Program-made: the position numbers and the translations under genes
Assembly: GCA_963775685.1 (NCBI GenBank)
Contig: CAVZJV010000014.1
Span: forward strand, 1,504,001-1,568,000
DNA length: 64,000 nt
Source: Candidatus Bathyarchaeota archaeon
Lineage (GTDB): Archaea > Thermoproteota > Bathyarchaeia > Bathyarchaeales > Bathycorpusculaceae
Direction of reading: 5' to 3'
In this document: positions 9,280 to 25,297 of the stretch, in pieces
Layout: the number at the start of each line of letters is the position of its first letter
Numbering within the stretch: the first letter of the stretch is position 1
Notes under the pieces: generated by a model
Databases searched by the model: none
The model's input: only the letters and a program-made list of their open reading frames with translations
What the model was told of the DNA's origin: nothing

Positions 9280-10569
9280 ATGGTTGGATCTTCAGTTGGG
9301 GTTAAGTCTTCTGACGTTTTTGGCACCTTCTCCAGTTCTCCCGCTTGTGGATCCACGCTTCAAGAAAGCATCCCCCTAAACCCACCTTGCCCTCAATGCG
9401 GATCTAGAAAACTCTGGAGAGACGCCAAACGCTACACCGTTTTTGGGGATGAAATTCAAAGATGGCTTTGCCGAGAATGCGGCCTTAGATTCTCAGATCC
9501 AAATGATGTCAAGAAAAGCTGGAGCACCCAGGAGAAAGCAGCCCGATCGGAATTGAACAATGAAATAAAAATGACCTCTGACTTAGTATCTAATCGCCAA
9601 ATATGCGTCACGGAGACGAAAAACTTGGTAGCAGAACAAAAGACAACTGAAGTTCTGCGGAGAAACCAAACTGGCGAGGTCAAAGGAAAAATCATCGAAT
9701 ACGCCTGGTGGCTAAAAAAAGACGGAAAAAGCGAATCAACAATCCTGGGCAGAACAAAGATCCTAAGCGTACTCACAAAACGAGGAGCAAACCTCTACGA
9801 TCCCGAAAGCATCAAAGAAGCCATAGCCAAACAACCCTGGAGCAGCGGCAGAAAAAACAACGCTTGCGACGCCTACTCATCCTTCCTAAGAATGGTAGGC
9901 GGCACCTGGGAAGCACCAGTATACCAAACAATCCGAAAACTTCCCTTCATCCCCAAAGAAACGGAAATCGACCAGCTCATCGCAGGAAGCAGCAAACGCA
10001 TGGCCACTTTCCTACAAACGCTAAAAGAAACAGGCTCAAGATGCGGAGAAATCTGGCGACTAAAATGGGACGACATAGACTTCGAAAGCAAAGTCGTAAA
10101 CATCACCCCCGAAAAAAACAGCAACCCACGAGTAACCCACCTAAGCGACAAACTCCTCGACATGCTCAGACAACAGCCAAAGAACTACGGTGAATACGTC
10201 TTTTCCCGCCCAAACATGAGAGTAGATAACCACGCGGTCACATTCCAGCAACAACGCAAACGAATCGCAAAGAAAATCGGCAACCCAAGAATACTAAAAA
10301 TCCACTTCCACACTCTAAGACACTTCAAAGGAACCATGCTCTATCACAAGACCAAAGACCTGCTCTACGTAATGCAAGCCTTAGGCCACAAAAACATCAA
10401 AAACACGCTCCTCTACATCCAACTCGAAGAAGCATTGTTCCAAGGCGAAATAGACTACATCTCAAAAGTCGCAAAGACTCCAGGAGAAATCTGCGTCCTA
10501 ATCGAAGCAGGCTTTGAATACGTCACTGAATTTGAAGGCCTCAAGTTCTTCAGGAAAAGGAAGACCTAA
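9280..10569 (+). CDS. Tyrosine recombinase/integrase with N-terminal Zn ribbon
   Basis: CPQC...CREC ribbon. Catalytic R (TGSRCGE), K (PEKNS), HxxR (HTLRH), H (LGHKNI) and Y (TLLY) are all present. Adjacent to a tRNA. Confidence 0.92.
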   Translation: MVGSSVGVKSSDVFGTFSSSPACGSTLQESIPLNPPCPQCGSRKLWRDAKRYTVFGDEIQRWLCRECGLRFSDPNDVKKSWSTQEKAARSELNNEIKMTSDLVSNRQICVTETKNLVAEQKTTEVLRRNQTGEVKGKIIEYAWWLKKDGKSESTILGRTKILSVLTKRGANLYDPESIKEAIAKQPWSSGRKNNACDAYSSFLRMVGGTWEAPVYQTIRKLPFIPKETEIDQLIAGSSKRMATFLQTLKETGSRCGEIWRLKWDDIDFESKVVNITPEKNSNPRVTHLSDKLLDMLRQQPKNYGEYVFSRPNMRVDNHAVTFQQQRKRIAKKIGNPRILKIHFHTLRHFKGTMLYHKTKDLLYVMQALGHKNIKNTLLYIQLEEALFQGEIDYISKVAKTPGEICVLIEAGFEYVTEFEGLKFFRKRKT

Positions 10570-10636: not shown

Positions 10637-10724
10637 TGGTGCAGGGGGTGGGATTCGAACCCACGAACGCCTACGCGATAGGGTCCTAAGCCCTACTCCG
10701 TTGACCTGGCTTGGAGACCCCTGC
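10637..10724 (-). tRNA. tRNA-Leu(UAG)
   Basis: Reverse complement GCAGGGG..TAGGG-CTTAGGA-CCCTA..long variable arm..GTTCGAATC..CCCCTGCACCA; CCA encoded. Confidence 0.95.
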
Positions 10725-18865: not shown

Positions 18866-18942
18866 GCCTTCGTAGCCTAGCCCGGTGGGGCGTTACCTTG
18901 GTAAGGTAATGGTCGCGGGTCCAAATCCCGCCGAAGGCTCCA
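18866..18942 (+). tRNA. tRNA-Thr(GGU)
   Basis: GCCTTCG/CGAAGGC acceptor stem, TTACC-TTGGTAA-GGTAA anticodon arm, GCGGG-TCCAAAT-CCCGC T arm, CCA encoded. Confidence 0.93.
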
Positions 18943-19232
18943 ACCTACCCCTGATTCACGGAAGAAGTCTGATTTTGGCTCTGATTGTTGCTGCAGAATT
19001 CAGCAACGCCACTGTGGTTTTCCGTAACGTTTAGCCCCGAGGACTTAAACAAAGAAAGTACCTCGCGCATTTTTTTCAGCTTTGACTTTCAAGCGACAAC
19101 GTATTGAACGCTGATAGTTCAAATCAAAACTATCCGGATTATTAAGAAATTCTCGCTCCGTTTTGCTGGGCATAAAAAAAATGTGCCTGAGCGATGTTTA
19201 ATCGCTTTCTGTATGTTTTCTTGTGGTAGCTA

Positions 19233-19369
19233 AAGGCCTTCAATTTCTGAAGGGGTATAGAAGAAGGAAGGGAGGTCTGACGTGAAATTGTTAATCATCA
19301 GAACATATTTTTTAATGAGTATATTATGCGGCTTCTTTCCTCTATACTTCTCAATTGTTGGAAGGCCTT
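19233..19369. repeat. ~135-bp element with AAGGCCTT inverted ends, copy A
   Basis: aaggccttcaa...ggggtatagaa / ttcctctatac...ttggaaggcctt. Core taatcatcagaacatat is shared (inverted) with copies B and C. Confidence 0.75.
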
Positions 19370-19404
19370 ATATCCCGAGGAACCACTAAGGTGCAGGATG
19401 CCAC

Positions 19405-19791
19405 ATGGAAAAGTTCTCTGTCTTAGACTGCGAAATCCTCTGGAACAAGAAAAACAAGATTCCCAAAAGCCACAAAACGGCAATCAAAGAAACGCTAAAA
19501 ACAATGTCTGCCAGCATCCAAAACGCAATGAAATTCACTTCGGACAATGAACAAGGCATTGTCACTTATGCCTTCATTCCCGAGATAGAGAATCAAGAAT
19601 GCGAAGTCGTCTATTTTCTTGAAGTTTACGTTGCCGGATATGAAGAAGAGCAGAAGTTTTGGCACGCAACCGTCAGGAGCAGATCAAAAATCTGGGATGA
19701 TGCGCATTTAGCCGACATTTACGATGAAAAATTTCGCTTGTATACAAGCTTGCTTGAAGAAGACGCTCAACCTGACAGCTTCAGCAAATAA
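19405..19791 (+). CDS. Hypothetical protein between repeat copies A and B
   Basis: 128-aa ORF; its stop codon TAA overlaps the AAGGCCTT end of copy B. Confidence 0.55.
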   Translation: MEKFSVLDCEILWNKKNKIPKSHKTAIKETLKTMSASIQNAMKFTSDNEQGIVTYAFIPEIENQECEVVYFLEVYVAGYEEEQKFWHATVRSRSKIWDDAHLADIYDEKFRLYTSLLEEDAQPDSFSK

Positions 19792-19921
19792 GGCCTTCAA
19801 CCGACGGAGGGTATAGAGTAAATGGTTTCTGTATTTTATTTTGTTGTTTTATAGGTTCTGTGATTAGATATTTTCCAGAAGCCCTGTTCCTACTATGCGG
19901 CCAAAATTTTGGAAAACCCTT
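19790..19921. repeat. ~135-bp element, copy B (right end degenerate)
   Basis: aaggccttcaa..gagggtatagag...ttttataggttctgtgattagata...ttggaaaaccctt. Confidence 0.7.
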
Positions 19922-19935
19922 GGTTAGCGACTAAC

Positions 19936-20214
19936 TTACATTTGGCGGCTCATTTTGCTAGCCACTATCAGAATCTGCTGTGTCAAAAACTCTTCCAACG
20001 AGTCAGGCTCGAAACCATGAATCGCTTTCTTGTGTCTGGCGGCATGATTTTTTATCGCGCAGTTCATGGCCTTCAAATCGGGTACAACCAAAATTTTGAA
20101 ACCACAGGTACACTTGATAATTGGCATGTTTGTTTTATATGCAACACCATTGTCGGTGCGATCTTTACTCAAAATGAAGTTGCTTTTTTGAATATCGTTT
20201 TTTGTCATACCCAT
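19936..20214 (-). CDS. Small Zn-binding protein (CxC...H...H)
   Basis: IKCTCGFKILVVPDLKAM..AIKNHAARH. Ends 14 bp from repeat B. Confidence 0.6.
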   Translation of the reverse strand: MGMTKNDIQKSNFILSKDRTDNGVAYKTNMPIIKCTCGFKILVVPDLKAMNCAIKNHAARHKKAIHGFEPDSLEEFLTQQILIVASKMSRQM

Positions 20215-20483
20215 TTCCCCTCCCTTGAGCCAAGATGATCTATGAATTCTTTGAATAATATATTAAATATTGTAGTAGGCGCGGCACAATCACAATTGCA
20301 TTGCAATTCATCAATTACTCACTAATTTATGCATCATACAATTCATTTTATTGTACTTATAGCATATTTGCTAATAAAAAGCATAATTGCTTGAATTAAA
20401 CAACAAAAATAGCAAAAGCTTATAACAATCAACCACATAACATACAGATATATATGGTTAAGTGAGAGGGAGAGGGTTCAAAG

Positions 20484-20813
20484 ATGAGACGATCAAAACT
20501 AATAATTTATGTTGACATTCTCAACGTGTTGGCTCATAGAGGTCCATCAAAGCTGACACATATCATGTACAAAGCTAACGTTAACTGTAACGTTCTTACA
20601 GATCACTTAGACTTTTTAATTAAGCAAGCTCTTGTAGAAAAACGAACGGTCACGAAAATGCGAGTAGTTTTCGCAATCACTCAACGCGGCACCAATGTTC
20701 TGAAGTATTTCCATGAACTCACACAAGTGTTGCCTATAATAGACGAAACCCCAAATCAAACAACCCCACTGCTTTATGCTCAGAAGAATTGCCTGTCAAA
20801 ACGAGTACGTTAG
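20484..20813 (+). CDS. Winged-HTH transcription regulator (COG3432/HTH_45-like)
   Basis: RRSKL.IYVDIL...LTHIMYKANVN...HLDFLI...FAITQRG. Confidence 0.85.
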   Translation: MRRSKLIIYVDILNVLAHRGPSKLTHIMYKANVNCNVLTDHLDFLIKQALVEKRTVTKMRVVFAITQRGTNVLKYFHELTQVLPIIDETPNQTTPLLYAQKNCLSKRVR

Positions 20814-20831
20814 TTGCCTAACTCCACAACC

Positions 20832-20968
20832 AAGGCCTTTCAAGATTGGATGCCATAGGATAAAGCCAAATCACGATTTATTTTATTCATTTTATATGTT
20901 CTTATGATTAGATAATCTAATGAAGACCTGTCGACTTCCCTCTATACCCCCAATTTATTGGAGGCCTT
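20832..20968. repeat. ~135-bp element, copy C
   Basis: aaggcctttcaa...ttttatatgttcttatgattagata...ccctctataccccc..ttggaggcctt. Confidence 0.75.
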
Positions 20969-21004: not shown

Positions 21005-21530
21005 AGTTACATATTAACGCTCATCTCGCCCAGGGCATTCAACGTTCGTTCTCTGAGTTCTTTTATCGCTCGAGAAAAATAGTGTCTAACGAATATGCTC
21101 GGCGAAATTCTGCCGCAGAGCCAGTCTGCTTCTTGAGCAACGAGTCCGTGCTTAATCATGAAAGTTCGTAATAATCGCGTAACTCGCTGATTCGACTGGG
21201 AATCTTGCGCCTTTGCGATTTCTTAATCACCCCTGCGTAAGTTACGGGTTGGCAATTCGAGATTTCGCCGATTATACTTTCAGACATAATGCTGATGAAA
21301 GCGTTCTTCGTTCCCCGCAAAAACTCTGCTTTGTATCGAAAATGCTCCAGAATTCCAAGTTCCCTGTTCAAGTAATCGCTTAATTTTCCTTGCTTTGAAA
21401 GCTCAATTATCTTGTCAAAGCTGGCGATTCCCTCGTTTGCTCGAAGTCCAGTCAACTGTAAAAAACCTAAGGATCAAATTCTCTTGTTGAGCAAGTACTG
21501 GCTCAACTTTAGAAAACCATGCTATATTCA
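21005..21530 (-). pseudogene. Decayed SSV-type tyrosine integrase remnant 1
   Basis: Across frameshifts: WFSKVEPVL..ENLILRF/LTGLRANEG..LGILEHFRY..FLRGTKNAFIS..ELRDYY/EADWLCGRISPSIFVRHY. Confidence 0.8.
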
Positions 21531-21572
21531 ATTTACTCGCGGGTAGACGTTCAACCCTGAATTCGCTTTCGG

Positions 21573-23637: not shown

Positions 23638-24533
23638 CTATACGCCCACTTCTGCCAAAGCATGTAAAGTTCTATCGCGTAAATCTTTGATTGTGGAAGA
23701 AAAGTAATGACGAACGAATATGCTTGGTGGAATCCTTCCAAAAAGCAAGTCTGCCTCCTGGGCAACGAGCTCATGACTAATAATAAAAGTGCCATAGAAA
23801 TCCCGCAGTTAGCTGATTCAAGTTGGAATCTTTCGCCTTTGAAGCTTCTTTGTGATGGCCGCATAAGTCACAGATCGACTCCTCGCGATTTCATCAATCA
23901 AAGTCTCAGGGACTATGCTGATGAAGGCATTCTTTCTGCCGCGCAGAAATTTGTCTTCATACTAAAATGCTCCAGAATCCCAATGTCACGGCTTAGGTAT
24001 TCATGTAATCTTTTTCTCTCCGAAAGCTCGATTATCAGGTTGAAGCTTTCAATGCCCTTGCTGCAACGTAGTCCTGTCAGGCTCAAGAATTTCAACAGCA
24101 AATTCTCCTGTGGCGTGAGTATCGGATTGACTTTGGCGAACCACTCGTCCAAATTACTATTGTTAATGCTGTATATTCTGACGAATGCGGCAAGCGCATC
24201 TGGTCGGGCGCTCTTGGGTCCGTAGCTTTTAAGGGCGGCCTTGCATTGCTCATAGCATCCGATGGACTTCGAGATTATGATTAGACTTTTTATTACTTCC
24301 GATTAACTGTTGATGGGACAGCAGAGTTGCCCGATATTGCCTGATTCAAGGTACATGGTAGTAGCGGTTAGCATAACAAATGACTCTTTTAGAGGTGTTT
24401 TGCCGGTATTTTCCCTGGACAAATTTTTTGAATTCAACCCAATCAAAAACTTTAAAGCTCATCGGTTCAATGAATCGGGCGGGCTGCTTGGTAAGGTAAT
24501 GGTCGCGGGTCCAAATCTCGCCGAAAGCTCCAT
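23638..24533 (-). pseudogene. Decayed SSV-type tyrosine integrase remnant 2, whose 5' end reads through the att site
   Basis: MELSARFGPATITLP (from the tRNA-derived repeat) / FDWVEFKKF..KY / WFAKV..LTGLR / LRDFYGTF..EADLLFGRIPPSIFVRHY. Multiple stops and frameshifts. Confidence 0.8.
24487..24532 (+). repeat. att site: direct repeat of the tRNA-Thr 3' half
   Basis: 44/46 identical to 18897-18942, starting at the anticodon loop. Confidence 0.9.
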
Positions 24534-24619
24534 TTCTTTAATTCTTTGCTTTATGTTTTTTGTAGAGACAACAAAATTGCATATATATGCATATGCACAT
24601 AGTAGTGATGGTAGTAATC

Positions 24620-24850
24620 GTGACTAAAGTAATCTCTCTTTCCGAAAAAGCATATGAAACTCTCAAGGGCATGAAGGAACCTGGAGAATCCTTTTCAGAT
24701 GTCGTTTTAAGAGTTGCAAAACCGAAAAAAAAGAAATCACTGCTGGAGTTTTCAGGCAAATGGGTTGGCAATGATATTGACGAAGTGTTTGCTAAGATAA
24801 AGAAAGATAGAGAGCATTCAGTTTCTCGGAAGGTCGACTTGTTTCAGTGA
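24620..24850 (+). CDS. vapB: VapB antitoxin (DUF217-like)
   Basis: (M)TKVISLSEKAYETLKGMKEPGESFSDVVLR..SLLEFSGKW. Overlaps vapC. Confidence 0.85.
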   Translation: MTKVISLSEKAYETLKGMKEPGESFSDVVLRVAKPKKKKSLLEFSGKWVGNDIDEVFAKIKKDREHSVSRKVDLFQ

Positions 24851-25236
24851 TCCTCGACACAGACATATTGATCGCACTGCTGAAAGGAGAGAAAGACGCA
24901 GACAAAGCAATGGAAAGTTTAGAACAAAACGGAGAACAAGCTGCCATTACAATGCTCACTGCTTATGAACTCCTTAGAGGAGCATATATTTCGTCAAATC
25001 CACAGAAAAACTTGGCGAAAGTGCAAGAACTAATAGCTAACATGAATGTTTTAGAGTTGACCTTGCAAGCATGCGAAGAAGCCTCCAAAATCTATCGAGA
25101 CCTCCGAAAAGCGGGGCACTTGATTGGAGAATTCGACACGTTAATAGCTGCAATAGCAAAAACTTATGTGGAACCGGTTATGACACGAGATGGACATTTC
25201 AAACTTATTACAGATATAAAGTTAAGTGAATGGTAA
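24847..25236 (+). CDS. vapC: VapC PIN-domain toxin
   Basis: ILDTDILI, YELLRG, FDTLIAAIA, MTRDGHF. Confidence 0.9.
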   Translation: MILDTDILIALLKGEKDADKAMESLEQNGEQAAITMLTAYELLRGAYISSNPQKNLAKVQELIANMNVLELTLQACEEASKIYRDLRKAGHLIGEFDTLIAAIAKTYVEPVMTRDGHFKLITDIKLSEW

Positions 25237-25252: not shown

Positions 25253-25297
25253 CCTTGGTAATGTCGCGGGTCCAAATCCCGCCGAGATCTCCAACCT
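25253..25297 (+). repeat. Second att relic (tRNA-Thr 3' half)
   Basis: ccttggtaa-tgtcgcgggtccaaatcccgccgagatctccaacct, with a short deletion and a few substitutions. Confidence 0.85.

Follow-up and report, generated by a model that had tools for sequence, protein, structure and literature searches.

The tRNA-Thr island and its elements

The segment described here lies in a 64,000-nucleotide stretch of Bathyarchaeota DNA, the window, and is an island inserted at a tRNA-Thr(GGT) gene, with two decayed copies of an integrase gene. Roughly 10 species have the tRNA-Thr island. The tRNA gene (18866..18942, plus strand) was identified by ARAGORN and scores 62 bits in Rfam. Its last 46 nt (18897-18942, plus strand) form the left attachment-site copy, detected as a BLAST repeat, and the same 3' part of the tRNA recurs at 95.7% identity at 24487..24532 (plus strand), the right attachment-site copy. 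Another repeat, 23 nt long and corresponding to 18912-18934, is found at 25263-25285. Both remnants are of an SSV-type integrase gene that we call Int-A and lie on the minus strand: the first, with several internal stops, occupies about 21028..21548 (G000:C14:1525028-1525548), and the second, at about 23653..24353 (G000:C14:1527653-1528353), adjoins the right attachment-site copy. An archaeal phage integrase and a duplicated tRNA 3' part at the island ends, the features by which cryptic integrated elements are recognised, are thus both present. The integrase linked to arrays of this kind matches PF16795 Phage_integr_3 (E = 4.3e-8, 33.6 bits, cut-off 27).

Between the tRNA gene and the first integrase remnant, three repeat elements alternate with small genes. 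Element A (19233-19369, minus strand) is a full-length copy, inverted relative to the other two. It is followed by the c3 gene (19405..19791, plus strand; 128 aa, no Pfam match), the stop codon of which overlaps the first bases of element B (19790-19921, plus strand). A 92-aa Cys/His-rich gene (19936..20214, minus strand), Zn-ribbon-like by eye and without a Pfam match, is convergent on the right end of B and ends 14 bp from it; paralogues of this gene are present. A 109-aa winged-helix gene (20484..20813, plus strand; PF14947 HTH_45, E = 1.3e-14) stops 18 bp before element C (20832-20968, plus strand). C is the final element of the array, the first Int-A remnant is convergent on it, and right arms of its kind contain the stop codon of the integrase at other loci.

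The preliminary description, made from the letters of the window, had recorded three elements of ~135 bp at these positions and noted that the intervening genes end at them. Both observations were borne out, and A, B and C proved to be 3 of 19 copies or fragments of a real repeat family in the genome. The inversion of A was confirmed by a profile built from the three elements, which scores A at 106 bits on the minus strand versus 27.7 bits on the plus strand; the whole element is turned, arms included, rather than the core alone. With A reverse-complemented, mean column identity in the alignment of the three is 76%. The statement that no transposase lies nearby can be extended to the whole genome for the families tested, but a recombinase does lie nearby, in the form of the decayed SSV-type integrase copies.

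Anatomy, distribution and orientation of the element family

The profile built from A, B and C alone matched further copies in the genome (E = 1e-15 to 1e-6), and its iteration brought the number to the 19 copies or fragments mentioned above, 17 of them on the minus strand. A profile scan had been suggested in the preliminary description, and it revealed additional copies not only in the genome but also across the genus: of the 120 species examined in one genus of soil Bathyarchaeota, 64 have the family. It was not found in 24 genomes from other genera within the order or in 145 genomes sampled across 78 other genera of the class, and is so far known from this one genus.

The elements are intergenic, lack an ORF and have a median length of 132 bp (range 125-146 bp). 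Each consists of two ~30-nt imperfect inverted boxes, both headed by the palindrome AAGGCCTT, around an AT-rich interior. Within it lie a T-rich tract and a TATA-like box, together with a conserved TTCTGATGAT core that is preceded by TTTTATATG-like boxes. An AAGGYCTT box occurs three times per element at fixed positions, with palindromic sub-sites. Runs of at least four T are found in 64 of 66 copies and of at least five in 44, with a median start at position 53.5. Copies are about 62% identical, with a median longest shared run of 10 nt, and identity is the same within genomes (0.616) as between them (0.619), indicating that there is neither homogenisation nor clustering within a genome. Signs of an imperfect hairpin of the attC kind in the single-stranded element are mixed: complementarity between the arms is partial (score 3.9 vs -6.5 for shuffles) and no higher within an element than between elements, RNAalifold gave 0 pairs on 14 copies, and single-copy folds had z < -3 in two of eight cases. 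The two arms of an element do not appear to co-evolve.

Several other identities for the element were considered and rejected. Compensatory hairpins within the arms are not apparent, the arms being no more stable than shuffles (left arm -1.61 vs -1.66 for shuffles; right arm -1.51 vs -0.99). A structured RNA was discounted: RNAalifold returned no consensus pair, and tRNAs were the sole Rfam matches at gathering thresholds, both in the window and in seven related loci. The motif CTGATGA had been considered as a C/D box or K-turn, but by eye no second box lies at the right spacing. A 17-nt core pattern matched four IMG/VR contigs, none of which contains a real element.

Elements are co-oriented in 27 of 28 multi-copy loci (log10 P = -19 relative to random orientation). 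The exception is the window, in which A is the sole inverted copy across the 28 loci. At all 11 loci with a tRNA gene beside the array, the elements are on the tRNA strand, and complete islands begin at the tRNA gene and extend through the array as far as a convergent integrase of the SSV type. In 10 loci this integrase converges on the last element and abuts it; in locus L020, where the intact protein has 296 aa, its last codons and stop lie inside the element's right arm. Up to 7-8 copies are packed into 6-12 kb, and copies are confined to islands. By an eye tally, elements are present in all 20 genomes in which an Int-A match reaches ~55% identity or more. The arrays are tied to one integrase family, a co-occurrence that the preliminary description had named as support for its view of the elements as functional sites. 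The idea that the element is an arm of the integrase attachment site was rejected: the tRNA-derived core is absent from the elements, and the first element can lie anywhere between 39 bp and about 2 kb from the tRNA gene.

Exchange of modules and its possible explanations

The 46 segments between elements have a median length of 574 bp, 34 of them measure 1 kb or less, and they are mostly single genes. The c3 module is found between elements in nine loci with different neighbours, and modules c3, c6, c5, c2 and Alba all keep a constant length while their neighbours change; the commonest module is a winged-helix and Zn-ribbon pair. Copies therefore flank varied single genes, and the same module recurs in different company, as the view of the elements as cassette boundaries had anticipated. 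Among 2145 pairs of elements, the upstream flank alone is common to 29, the downstream flank alone to 45 and both to two. The flanks are therefore almost fully uncoupled, both being shared in 2 of the 76 pairs that have any flank in common. Where the upstream flank is shared, identity is raised at element positions 1-56; where the downstream flank is shared, it is raised at positions 89-134. The left portion of an element accompanies the module upstream of it, the right portion the module downstream, and the two have separate histories. B is a case in point: its left part goes with the c3 module and its right part with the Zn-ribbon module. Compared with a paralogous island (C14:2152-2158 kb), the window lacks ~2.2 kb between two elements, and B corresponds to the left part of one and the right part of another element of that island. 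In four DNA runs with small parts of the stretch, one relative's contig had 150 other letters in place of B, and the remaining relatives' contigs gave no usable joint.

The points at which exchange took place are scattered over positions 3-56 and 87-130, and a single crossover point can thus be dismissed. In the latest event observed, a 1-kb duplication of 97.8% identity in genome G016, one boundary falls near position 95 of an element and the other 27 nt beyond the following element. Half-elements had been considered as insertions into core-bearing pseudo-sites, and this was rejected: in the single comparable case, next to a tRNA-Cys gene, the half-element merely marks where an integrase gene has been truncated, and in related sequences without an insertion this place has no core. 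Half-elements that retain the core are in any case favoured by the detection method. A search for an empty site around the c3 module of locus L058 defined none, because each neighbouring module maps elsewhere. The elements are thus cassette boundaries in a descriptive sense, whereas the scattered exchange points, the one-sided duplication and the truncation half-element all speak against a dedicated recombination site.

We tentatively favour the explanation that A, B and C are boundary, or linker, elements at which the modules of an island are shuffled, an archaeal counterpart of the PeSL cassettes of T4-type phages, while holding it to be somewhat short of probable. The elements would be linkers within the cargo of a family of small islands that have an integrase and use tRNA genes as insertion sites. 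The element is the only sequence that otherwise unrelated one-gene modules have in common, and it would be the place where modules are gained, lost and exchanged. It may be retained by selection as a transcription boundary, its T-tract serving as a putative terminator for the genes that end at it and its core possibly containing a promoter that reads outwards. In crude ORF calls around 65 elements, 55 gene stops and 33 gene starts face an element. The c3 ATG lies 36 nt past the neighbouring element with no TATA-like box in between. It counts against the boundary reading that module c5, and probably Alba as well, has a TATA-like box of its own, and that the orientation of the elements is independent of that of the flanking genes (15 starts face the left end and 28 stops the right end), where a pure regulatory unit would be expected to be oriented with its genes. 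Shuffling would proceed through the short conserved blocks, by recombination that is either illegitimate or guided by homology. Circles or unequal crossovers are the probable intermediates, which would keep the copies co-oriented. Three further points sit uneasily with this explanation. An identity of ~62% with shared runs of around 10 nt would seem to offer little to classical homologous recombination, a terminator-promoter role leaves the inverted arms and the strongly conserved core unexplained, and the near-complete uncoupling of the flanks suggests an efficient process.

It is also possible, though rather unlikely in our judgement, that the elements are true recombination sites of an archaeal integron-like cassette system, in which Int-A or another tyrosine recombinase of the island recognises the boxes and core, and circular cassettes are excised and then inserted at another element. 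The platform would then be, with the same modest likelihood, a tRNA-inserted island with a Phage_integr_3 integrase, using a new class of ~132-bp site with AAGGCCTT-headed boxes and a TTCTGATGAT core and drawing on a genus-wide cassette pool that includes chromatin (Alba), regulator, antitoxin-like and even metabolic genes. Much of the evidence above is consistent with such a system: the co-orientation of arrays regardless of gene orientation, the mostly single-gene modules of conserved length with changing neighbours, the uncoupled flanks, the fixed position and orientation of the elements relative to the integrase, the elements in all 20 genomes tallied for an Int-A match, and the composition of B with the missing 2.2 kb. 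The motifs also keep a fixed spacing in diverged copies that show no homogenisation within genomes, which fits selection for protein recognition. Against it stand the absence of a fixed crossover point for cassette exchange, the G016 duplication with an element at one end only, its other end falling outside any element, and the tRNA-Cys half-element, a truncation junction with no core in its unoccupied relatives. Elements also occur in 25 of the 62 genomes that have no Int-A match at E <= 1e-10, the attachment site of the integrase is the 3' end of a tRNA gene, unlike the element, and module c2 has also been seen 1.2 kb from any element.

That the elements are solely regulatory sites, operators or insulators predicted to bind a protein such as the winged-helix or Zn-ribbon protein, seems improbable. 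They would then lie at module joints merely through being intergenic and would have no role in recombination. The three AAGGYCTT boxes at fixed positions with their palindromic sub-sites, the prevalence of the winged-helix and Zn-ribbon pair among the modules, and the high winged-helix copy number in element-rich genomes (up to 15) are what such sites might be expected to show. However, homology between loci ends within elements far more often than it would for a passive bystander, and the two halves of an element have different histories. The winged-helix family, found in 98 of the 120 genomes of the genus including some without elements, is not specific to them.

We consider it very unlikely that the elements are MITEs, moved by a transposase that recognises terminal inverted repeats, which the preliminary description had offered as an option. 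Their length of 125-146 bp, ~30-nt imperfect terminal inverted repeats, AT-richness, lack of ORFs, intergenic location and copy number all suit a MITE. By eye, though, the flanks of the 19 copies reveal no target-site duplication, in agreement with what had been noted for A, B and C. The arm profile gave 25 matches in the genome, 21 of them in known elements and four weak singletons (E = 2-6.5); as the arm motif is found nowhere else in this 96.9%-complete assembly, there is no full-length partner IS. PF01797 and PF07282 had no match in the same genome, which thus has neither a Y1 nor a TnpB transposase, and single-strand transposition, considered in view of the 17 of 19 copies on the minus strand, was rejected for the same reason. 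The arrays are co-oriented, unlike copies that insert as units in either orientation, the left and right halves follow different flanks, the copies are confined to islands, and at ~62% identity they do not cluster within genomes.

Least likely of all is that the elements are invertible promoters or mini-origins in which an unwinding element is flanked by initiator boxes in inverted orientation. The layout, in which inverted boxes enclose an asymmetric, AT-rich core and a TATA-like box, and the inversion of A would suit one or the other, but neither orc1/cdc6 gene has the arm motif beside it (nor, in a limited test, a TTCCA-N3-7-TGG motif or a shared repeat), 7-8 copies can lie within a few kb, and the inverted copy, seen in one of 28 multi-copy loci, has the whole element turned.

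Whichever explanation applies, the element is a simple sequence marker with which, in 64 species, the variable cargo of an entire island family can be located, and among these islands one-gene modules circulate, including a paralogue of a chromatin protein. Should a recombinase act on the element, the arrays would represent a second system of cassette capture, built independently of the first; otherwise they would be an archaeal case of modular evolution driven by regulatory linkers, which has so far been documented for T4-type phages. In both cases, the element provides a handle on how archaeal islands acquire genes.

Comparison with known systems

Besides canonical integrons, our literature search, which included the available parts of PMC6563490 and PMC9668308, found no repeat-delimited cassette organisation for archaeal islands. 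Like MITEs and REP, BIME or REPIN sequences, the elements are small, non-coding, extragenic, multi-copy and bear inverted repeats; unlike them, they have no target duplication, partner transposase or RAYT, they are co-oriented and diverged, and their halves have separate histories.

The islands themselves resemble the archaeal cryptic integrated elements (CIE) described in the available part of Krupovic et al. (2019, PMC6563490), which can be as small as 2.6 kb and use SSV-type or other tyrosine integrases to insert at tRNA genes. They share with CIE the integrase as sole signature gene, insertion at tRNA genes and tandem re-use of the site. The terms 'MITE' and 'intergenic repeat' do not occur in that part of the text, nor does a description of repeat-delimited cargo; relative to it, the organisation of the cargo by a conserved repeat is a new feature.

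The arrays are also reminiscent of integron attC arrays, including those of archaeal integrons as far as the accessible text of Ghaly et al. (2022, PMC9668308) describes them: co-oriented imperfect inverted-repeat sites of ~60-140 bp, mostly single ORFs between them, an adjoining tyrosine recombinase, and cassettes common to relatives in changing order. Here, 27 of 28 loci have co-oriented sites between mostly single ORFs, with a median spacing of 574 bp. In contrast to the integrons portrayed there, the ends of the elements are not of the attC type, as the preliminary description had already remarked: R'' RYYYAAC and R' GTTRRRY occur together in 0 of 66 full-length copies on either strand, and each alone in 0-1 of 66. 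The window's genome also lacks an IntI (best TIGR02249 score 45 bits, cut-off 265). The recombinase is instead SSV-type, convergent at the far end of the array and has a tRNA attachment site; there is no fixed crossover, and copies within a genome are no more alike than copies from different genomes.

A close parallel under our preferred boundary reading is provided by the promoter-early stem-loop (PeSL) mobile regulatory cassettes of T4-type phages, terminator-promoter cassettes that mediate the shuffling of modules, as set out in the portions available of Arbiol et al. (2010, PMC2839356) and Comeau et al. (2014, PMC4122927). Compared with the PeSL described in these portions, the A/B/C family is archaeal, has ~132-bp members with ~30-nt inverted arms and a conserved non-promoter core, is much more diverged and encloses genes that run in both directions; its terminator and promoter activities are predicted from T runs and a TATA-like box. 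What the two have in common is the arrangement: in the hypervariable part of a mobile genome, short conserved composite motifs separate ORFs that are small and non-essential, the end points of insertions, deletions and replacements between relatives fall within the motif, and the motif is the sole homology between otherwise unrelated modules.

The element family and the islands that carry it

Our analysis showed that the three repeat elements A (19233-19369), B (19790-19921) and C (20832-20968) lie where the preliminary description placed them, at the distances from neighbouring gene ends that it gave. Aligned with A reverse-complemented, they have a mean column identity of 76%, and a profile built from these three alone, a check proposed in that description, picks up additional copies elsewhere in this genome (E = 1e-15 to 1e-6), which means that the similarity of the three is not due to chance. 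Iterated profile searching yields 19 copies or fragments in this genome: the three in the window, clusters of five at C14:2152-2157 kb and seven at C14:2384-2393 kb, and four single copies. In 66 full-length copies, drawn from 17 genomes, length varies between 125 and 146 bp (median 132 bp) and conserved blocks recur at fixed positions: the left end carries AAGGYC, and then come TATAG near position 25, a T-rich tract at about 40-62 (58% T, with a run of at least four T in 64/66 copies and at least five in 44/66), a TTTTATATG-like box ahead of the core, the core TTCTGATGAT.AG at 67-80, GACCT near 95, CTAT near 107 and TTTTGGAAGRCCTT as the right terminus. Each arm spans ~30 nt, and the two are one motif in inverted orientation (score 3.9 versus -6.5 for shuffles); arms of the same element (3.91) are no more complementary than arms taken from different elements (4.32), so they do not co-evolve. 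No consensus RNA structure was found among the copies, single folds of eight copies were inconsistent (z from -5.8 to +0.4), and no Rfam family matches the element.

With a sequence-only model (R1), the element was detected in 15 out of 36 congeneric species and in none of 24 genomes from other genera of the order. Across the whole genus it is present in 64 of 120 species (E <= 1e-6), with per-genome copy numbers that are lower bounds (the highest is at least 28), since no more than 28 candidates were scored in each genome, and counts that are not independent, all comparisons being between species of one genus. A class-wide sample of 145 genomes from 78 other genera contained none, and a scan of IMG/VR with the core pattern gave no real copy; partial elements lacking the core are hard to detect.

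Absent from the preliminary description were the tRNA-Thr(GGT) gene at which the segment holding A, B and C starts, with its last 46 nt repeated at 24487-24532 and a partial repeat of them at 25263-25285, and two decayed integrase copies (about 21028-21548 and about 23653-24353); A, B and C therefore lie inside an integrated island. Copies are co-oriented in 27 of 28 non-redundant multi-copy loci (log10 P = -19 under random orientation), the exception being the window, and at the 11 loci with a tRNA gene (Thr, Cys or Ala) beside the array, elements and tRNA gene share the same strand. The convergent integrase at the array's other end is of the archaeal-phage (SSV) type (PF16795, E = 4.3e-8, 33.6 bits). 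At locus L020, where it is intact (296 aa), its last codons and stop lie inside the right arm of the last element, and it likewise abuts the last element in L022, L045, L083-L088 and the window. Complete tRNA-Thr islands in five other species (L045, L083, L085, L087, L088) have an identical frame, and the genes between their elements vary from island to island. Homologues of this integrase occur in 58 of 120 genomes (E <= 1e-10). Its co-occurrence with the elements is only loose: elements are present in 39 of these 58 genomes and in 25 of the 62 others (odds ratio 3.0, relatives not being independent), and in all 20 genomes, tallied by eye, with matches of at least ~55% identity.

Antisense into tRNA-Thr runs a conserved ~100-aa ORF (18945-19173, minus strand), frameshifted in the window and intact at L088:8933-9244 and L087:890-1222; an earlier insertion may have left it behind as the N-terminal part of a split SSV-type integrase. 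A small two-gene pair, VapB/VapC (PIN)-like by eye, lies between the 46-nt and 23-nt tRNA-Thr repeats (24587-25236, plus strand) and also follows the integrase in L086:4151-4767. Located 8 kb upstream, a second and intact tyrosine recombinase (442-aa open frame; PF00589, 90 bits) adjoins tRNA-Leu (9958-10428, plus strand, and 10637-10724, minus strand), probably marking another integrated element.

Gene modules between the elements

Of 46 segments between elements (median 574 bp), 34 are at most 1 kb long; among the 46 are modules that recur at constant length with changed neighbours: c3 (about 420 bp, the 128-aa gene of the window, nine loci), c6 (about 390 bp, DUF5752-like), c5 (about 415-428 bp), c2 (about 515-543 bp) and an Alba paralogue module (398-430 bp). 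The expectation that copies would flank varied single genes was borne out, modules differing from island to island. Pairwise comparison of full-length elements (2145 pairs) gave 29 with a common upstream flank only, 45 with a common downstream flank only, two with both in common and 2069 with neither; an element is thus nearly always the joint of modules that assort independently. A common upstream flank raises identity at element positions 1-56 and a common downstream flank at 89-134, so the element's left part tracks the module upstream of it, and its right part the module downstream. The window island is itself a rearranged paralogue (86-90% identity) of the island at 2152-2158 kb: B matches one element of that island in its left flank and arm and a second one in its right arm and flank, and the stretch of 2.2 kb separating these two counterparts is absent from the window island.

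Module c2 (L002:12301-12816, L003:3700-4210 and L006:5250-5700 in the window's genome; also L026, L027, L046, L047 and L052) is 73-93% identical over eight loci. Its 52-aa ORF, ribbon-helix-helix-like by eye, lies downstream of an AT-rich palindromic region and upstream of a highly conserved non-coding tail of ~110 nt that holds a T run and two hairpin-like palindromes; c2 could be a small RNA or antitoxin-type module. The Alba (PF01918) paralogue is a one-gene module flanked by two elements in two species (L002:6837-7121, that is G000:C14:2386837-2387121, and L045:6839-7153); the window's genome also has a third copy (L003:7391-7687, 85% identical), 3 kb away from an element. A three-gene, 4.1-kb operon, FAD-dependent oxidoreductase-like by eye (L002:8895-11987; G000:C14:2388895-2391987), is bounded by an element and a half-element, so metabolic genes can also sit in the array.

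Possible roles of the elements

We ranked five readings by the mechanism evidence for and against them. The one placed first, to which we give somewhat less than an even chance, is that the elements are linkers or boundaries resembling the promoter-early stem-loop (PeSL) cassettes of T4-type phages, as the latter are described in PMC2839356 and PMC4122927; module shuffling would be guided by homology at these elements. The copies are ~62% identical, with a median longest shared run of 10 nt, and are no more alike within a genome (0.616) than between genomes (0.619); it is the island that sets their orientation, rather than the genes beside them. Together these observations speak against both simple homologous exchange and a role in regulation alone.

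A dedicated site-specific cassette system, the one option of the preliminary description that keeps some weight, we consider rather unlikely. Against a single-site recombinase, the change points of flank-sharing pairs are scattered over positions 3-56 and 87-130. The youngest event seen, a 1-kb duplication (97.8% identical) of a winged-helix and Zn-ribbon module in G016, another genome of the genus (L045:8185-9201 and L050:3714-4731), begins near position 95 inside one element and runs to a point 27 nt outside the following one. The half-element adjoining tRNA-Cys in the window's genome marks the point at which an integrase gene has been truncated; no core is present in the equivalent sequence from relatives. 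Module c2 is also found 1.2 kb from any element.

That the elements are binding sites with no role in recombination is improbable, given their island-fixed orientation; by crude, mechanical ORF calls at 65 elements, stops face the left end 27 times and the right end 28 times, and starts 15 and 18 times. The two remaining readings fared worse. A MITE is very unlikely: as first described, no target duplication is visible, neither Y1 nor TnpB was found in the window's genome, and no partner emerged there, the arm profile matching only known copies and four weak singletons. A mini-origin or invertible promoter is the least credible, the arm motif being absent beside both orc1/cdc6 genes. In another species, a 131-aa ORF that is IS200-type Y1 transposase-like by eye (L057:670-1065) lies 1.8 kb from a c3 module; no such transposase was found in the window's genome.

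Relation to known systems

Literature on Bathyarchaeota mobile elements, on integrons in Bathyarchaeia and on archaeal MITEs, as far as it was accessible, yielded no description of this family. The archaeal integron paper reports canonical attC sites and IntI, identified with HattCI and IntegronFinder (PMC9668308), and its searchable main text does not mention Bathyarchaeia. The element arrays differ from integrons in both respects: the attC end consensus occurs in 0/66 full-length copies, in line with the original reading of the ends, and there is no IntI in the window's genome, the best match scoring 45 bits against a cut-off of 265. In the thaumarchaeal island survey that defines cryptic integrated elements (PMC6563490), the terms 'MITE' and 'intergenic repeat' do not occur in the searchable text, and its passages on these elements describe no such repeats; the island holding A, B and C is itself a cryptic integrated element with an SSV-type integrase.
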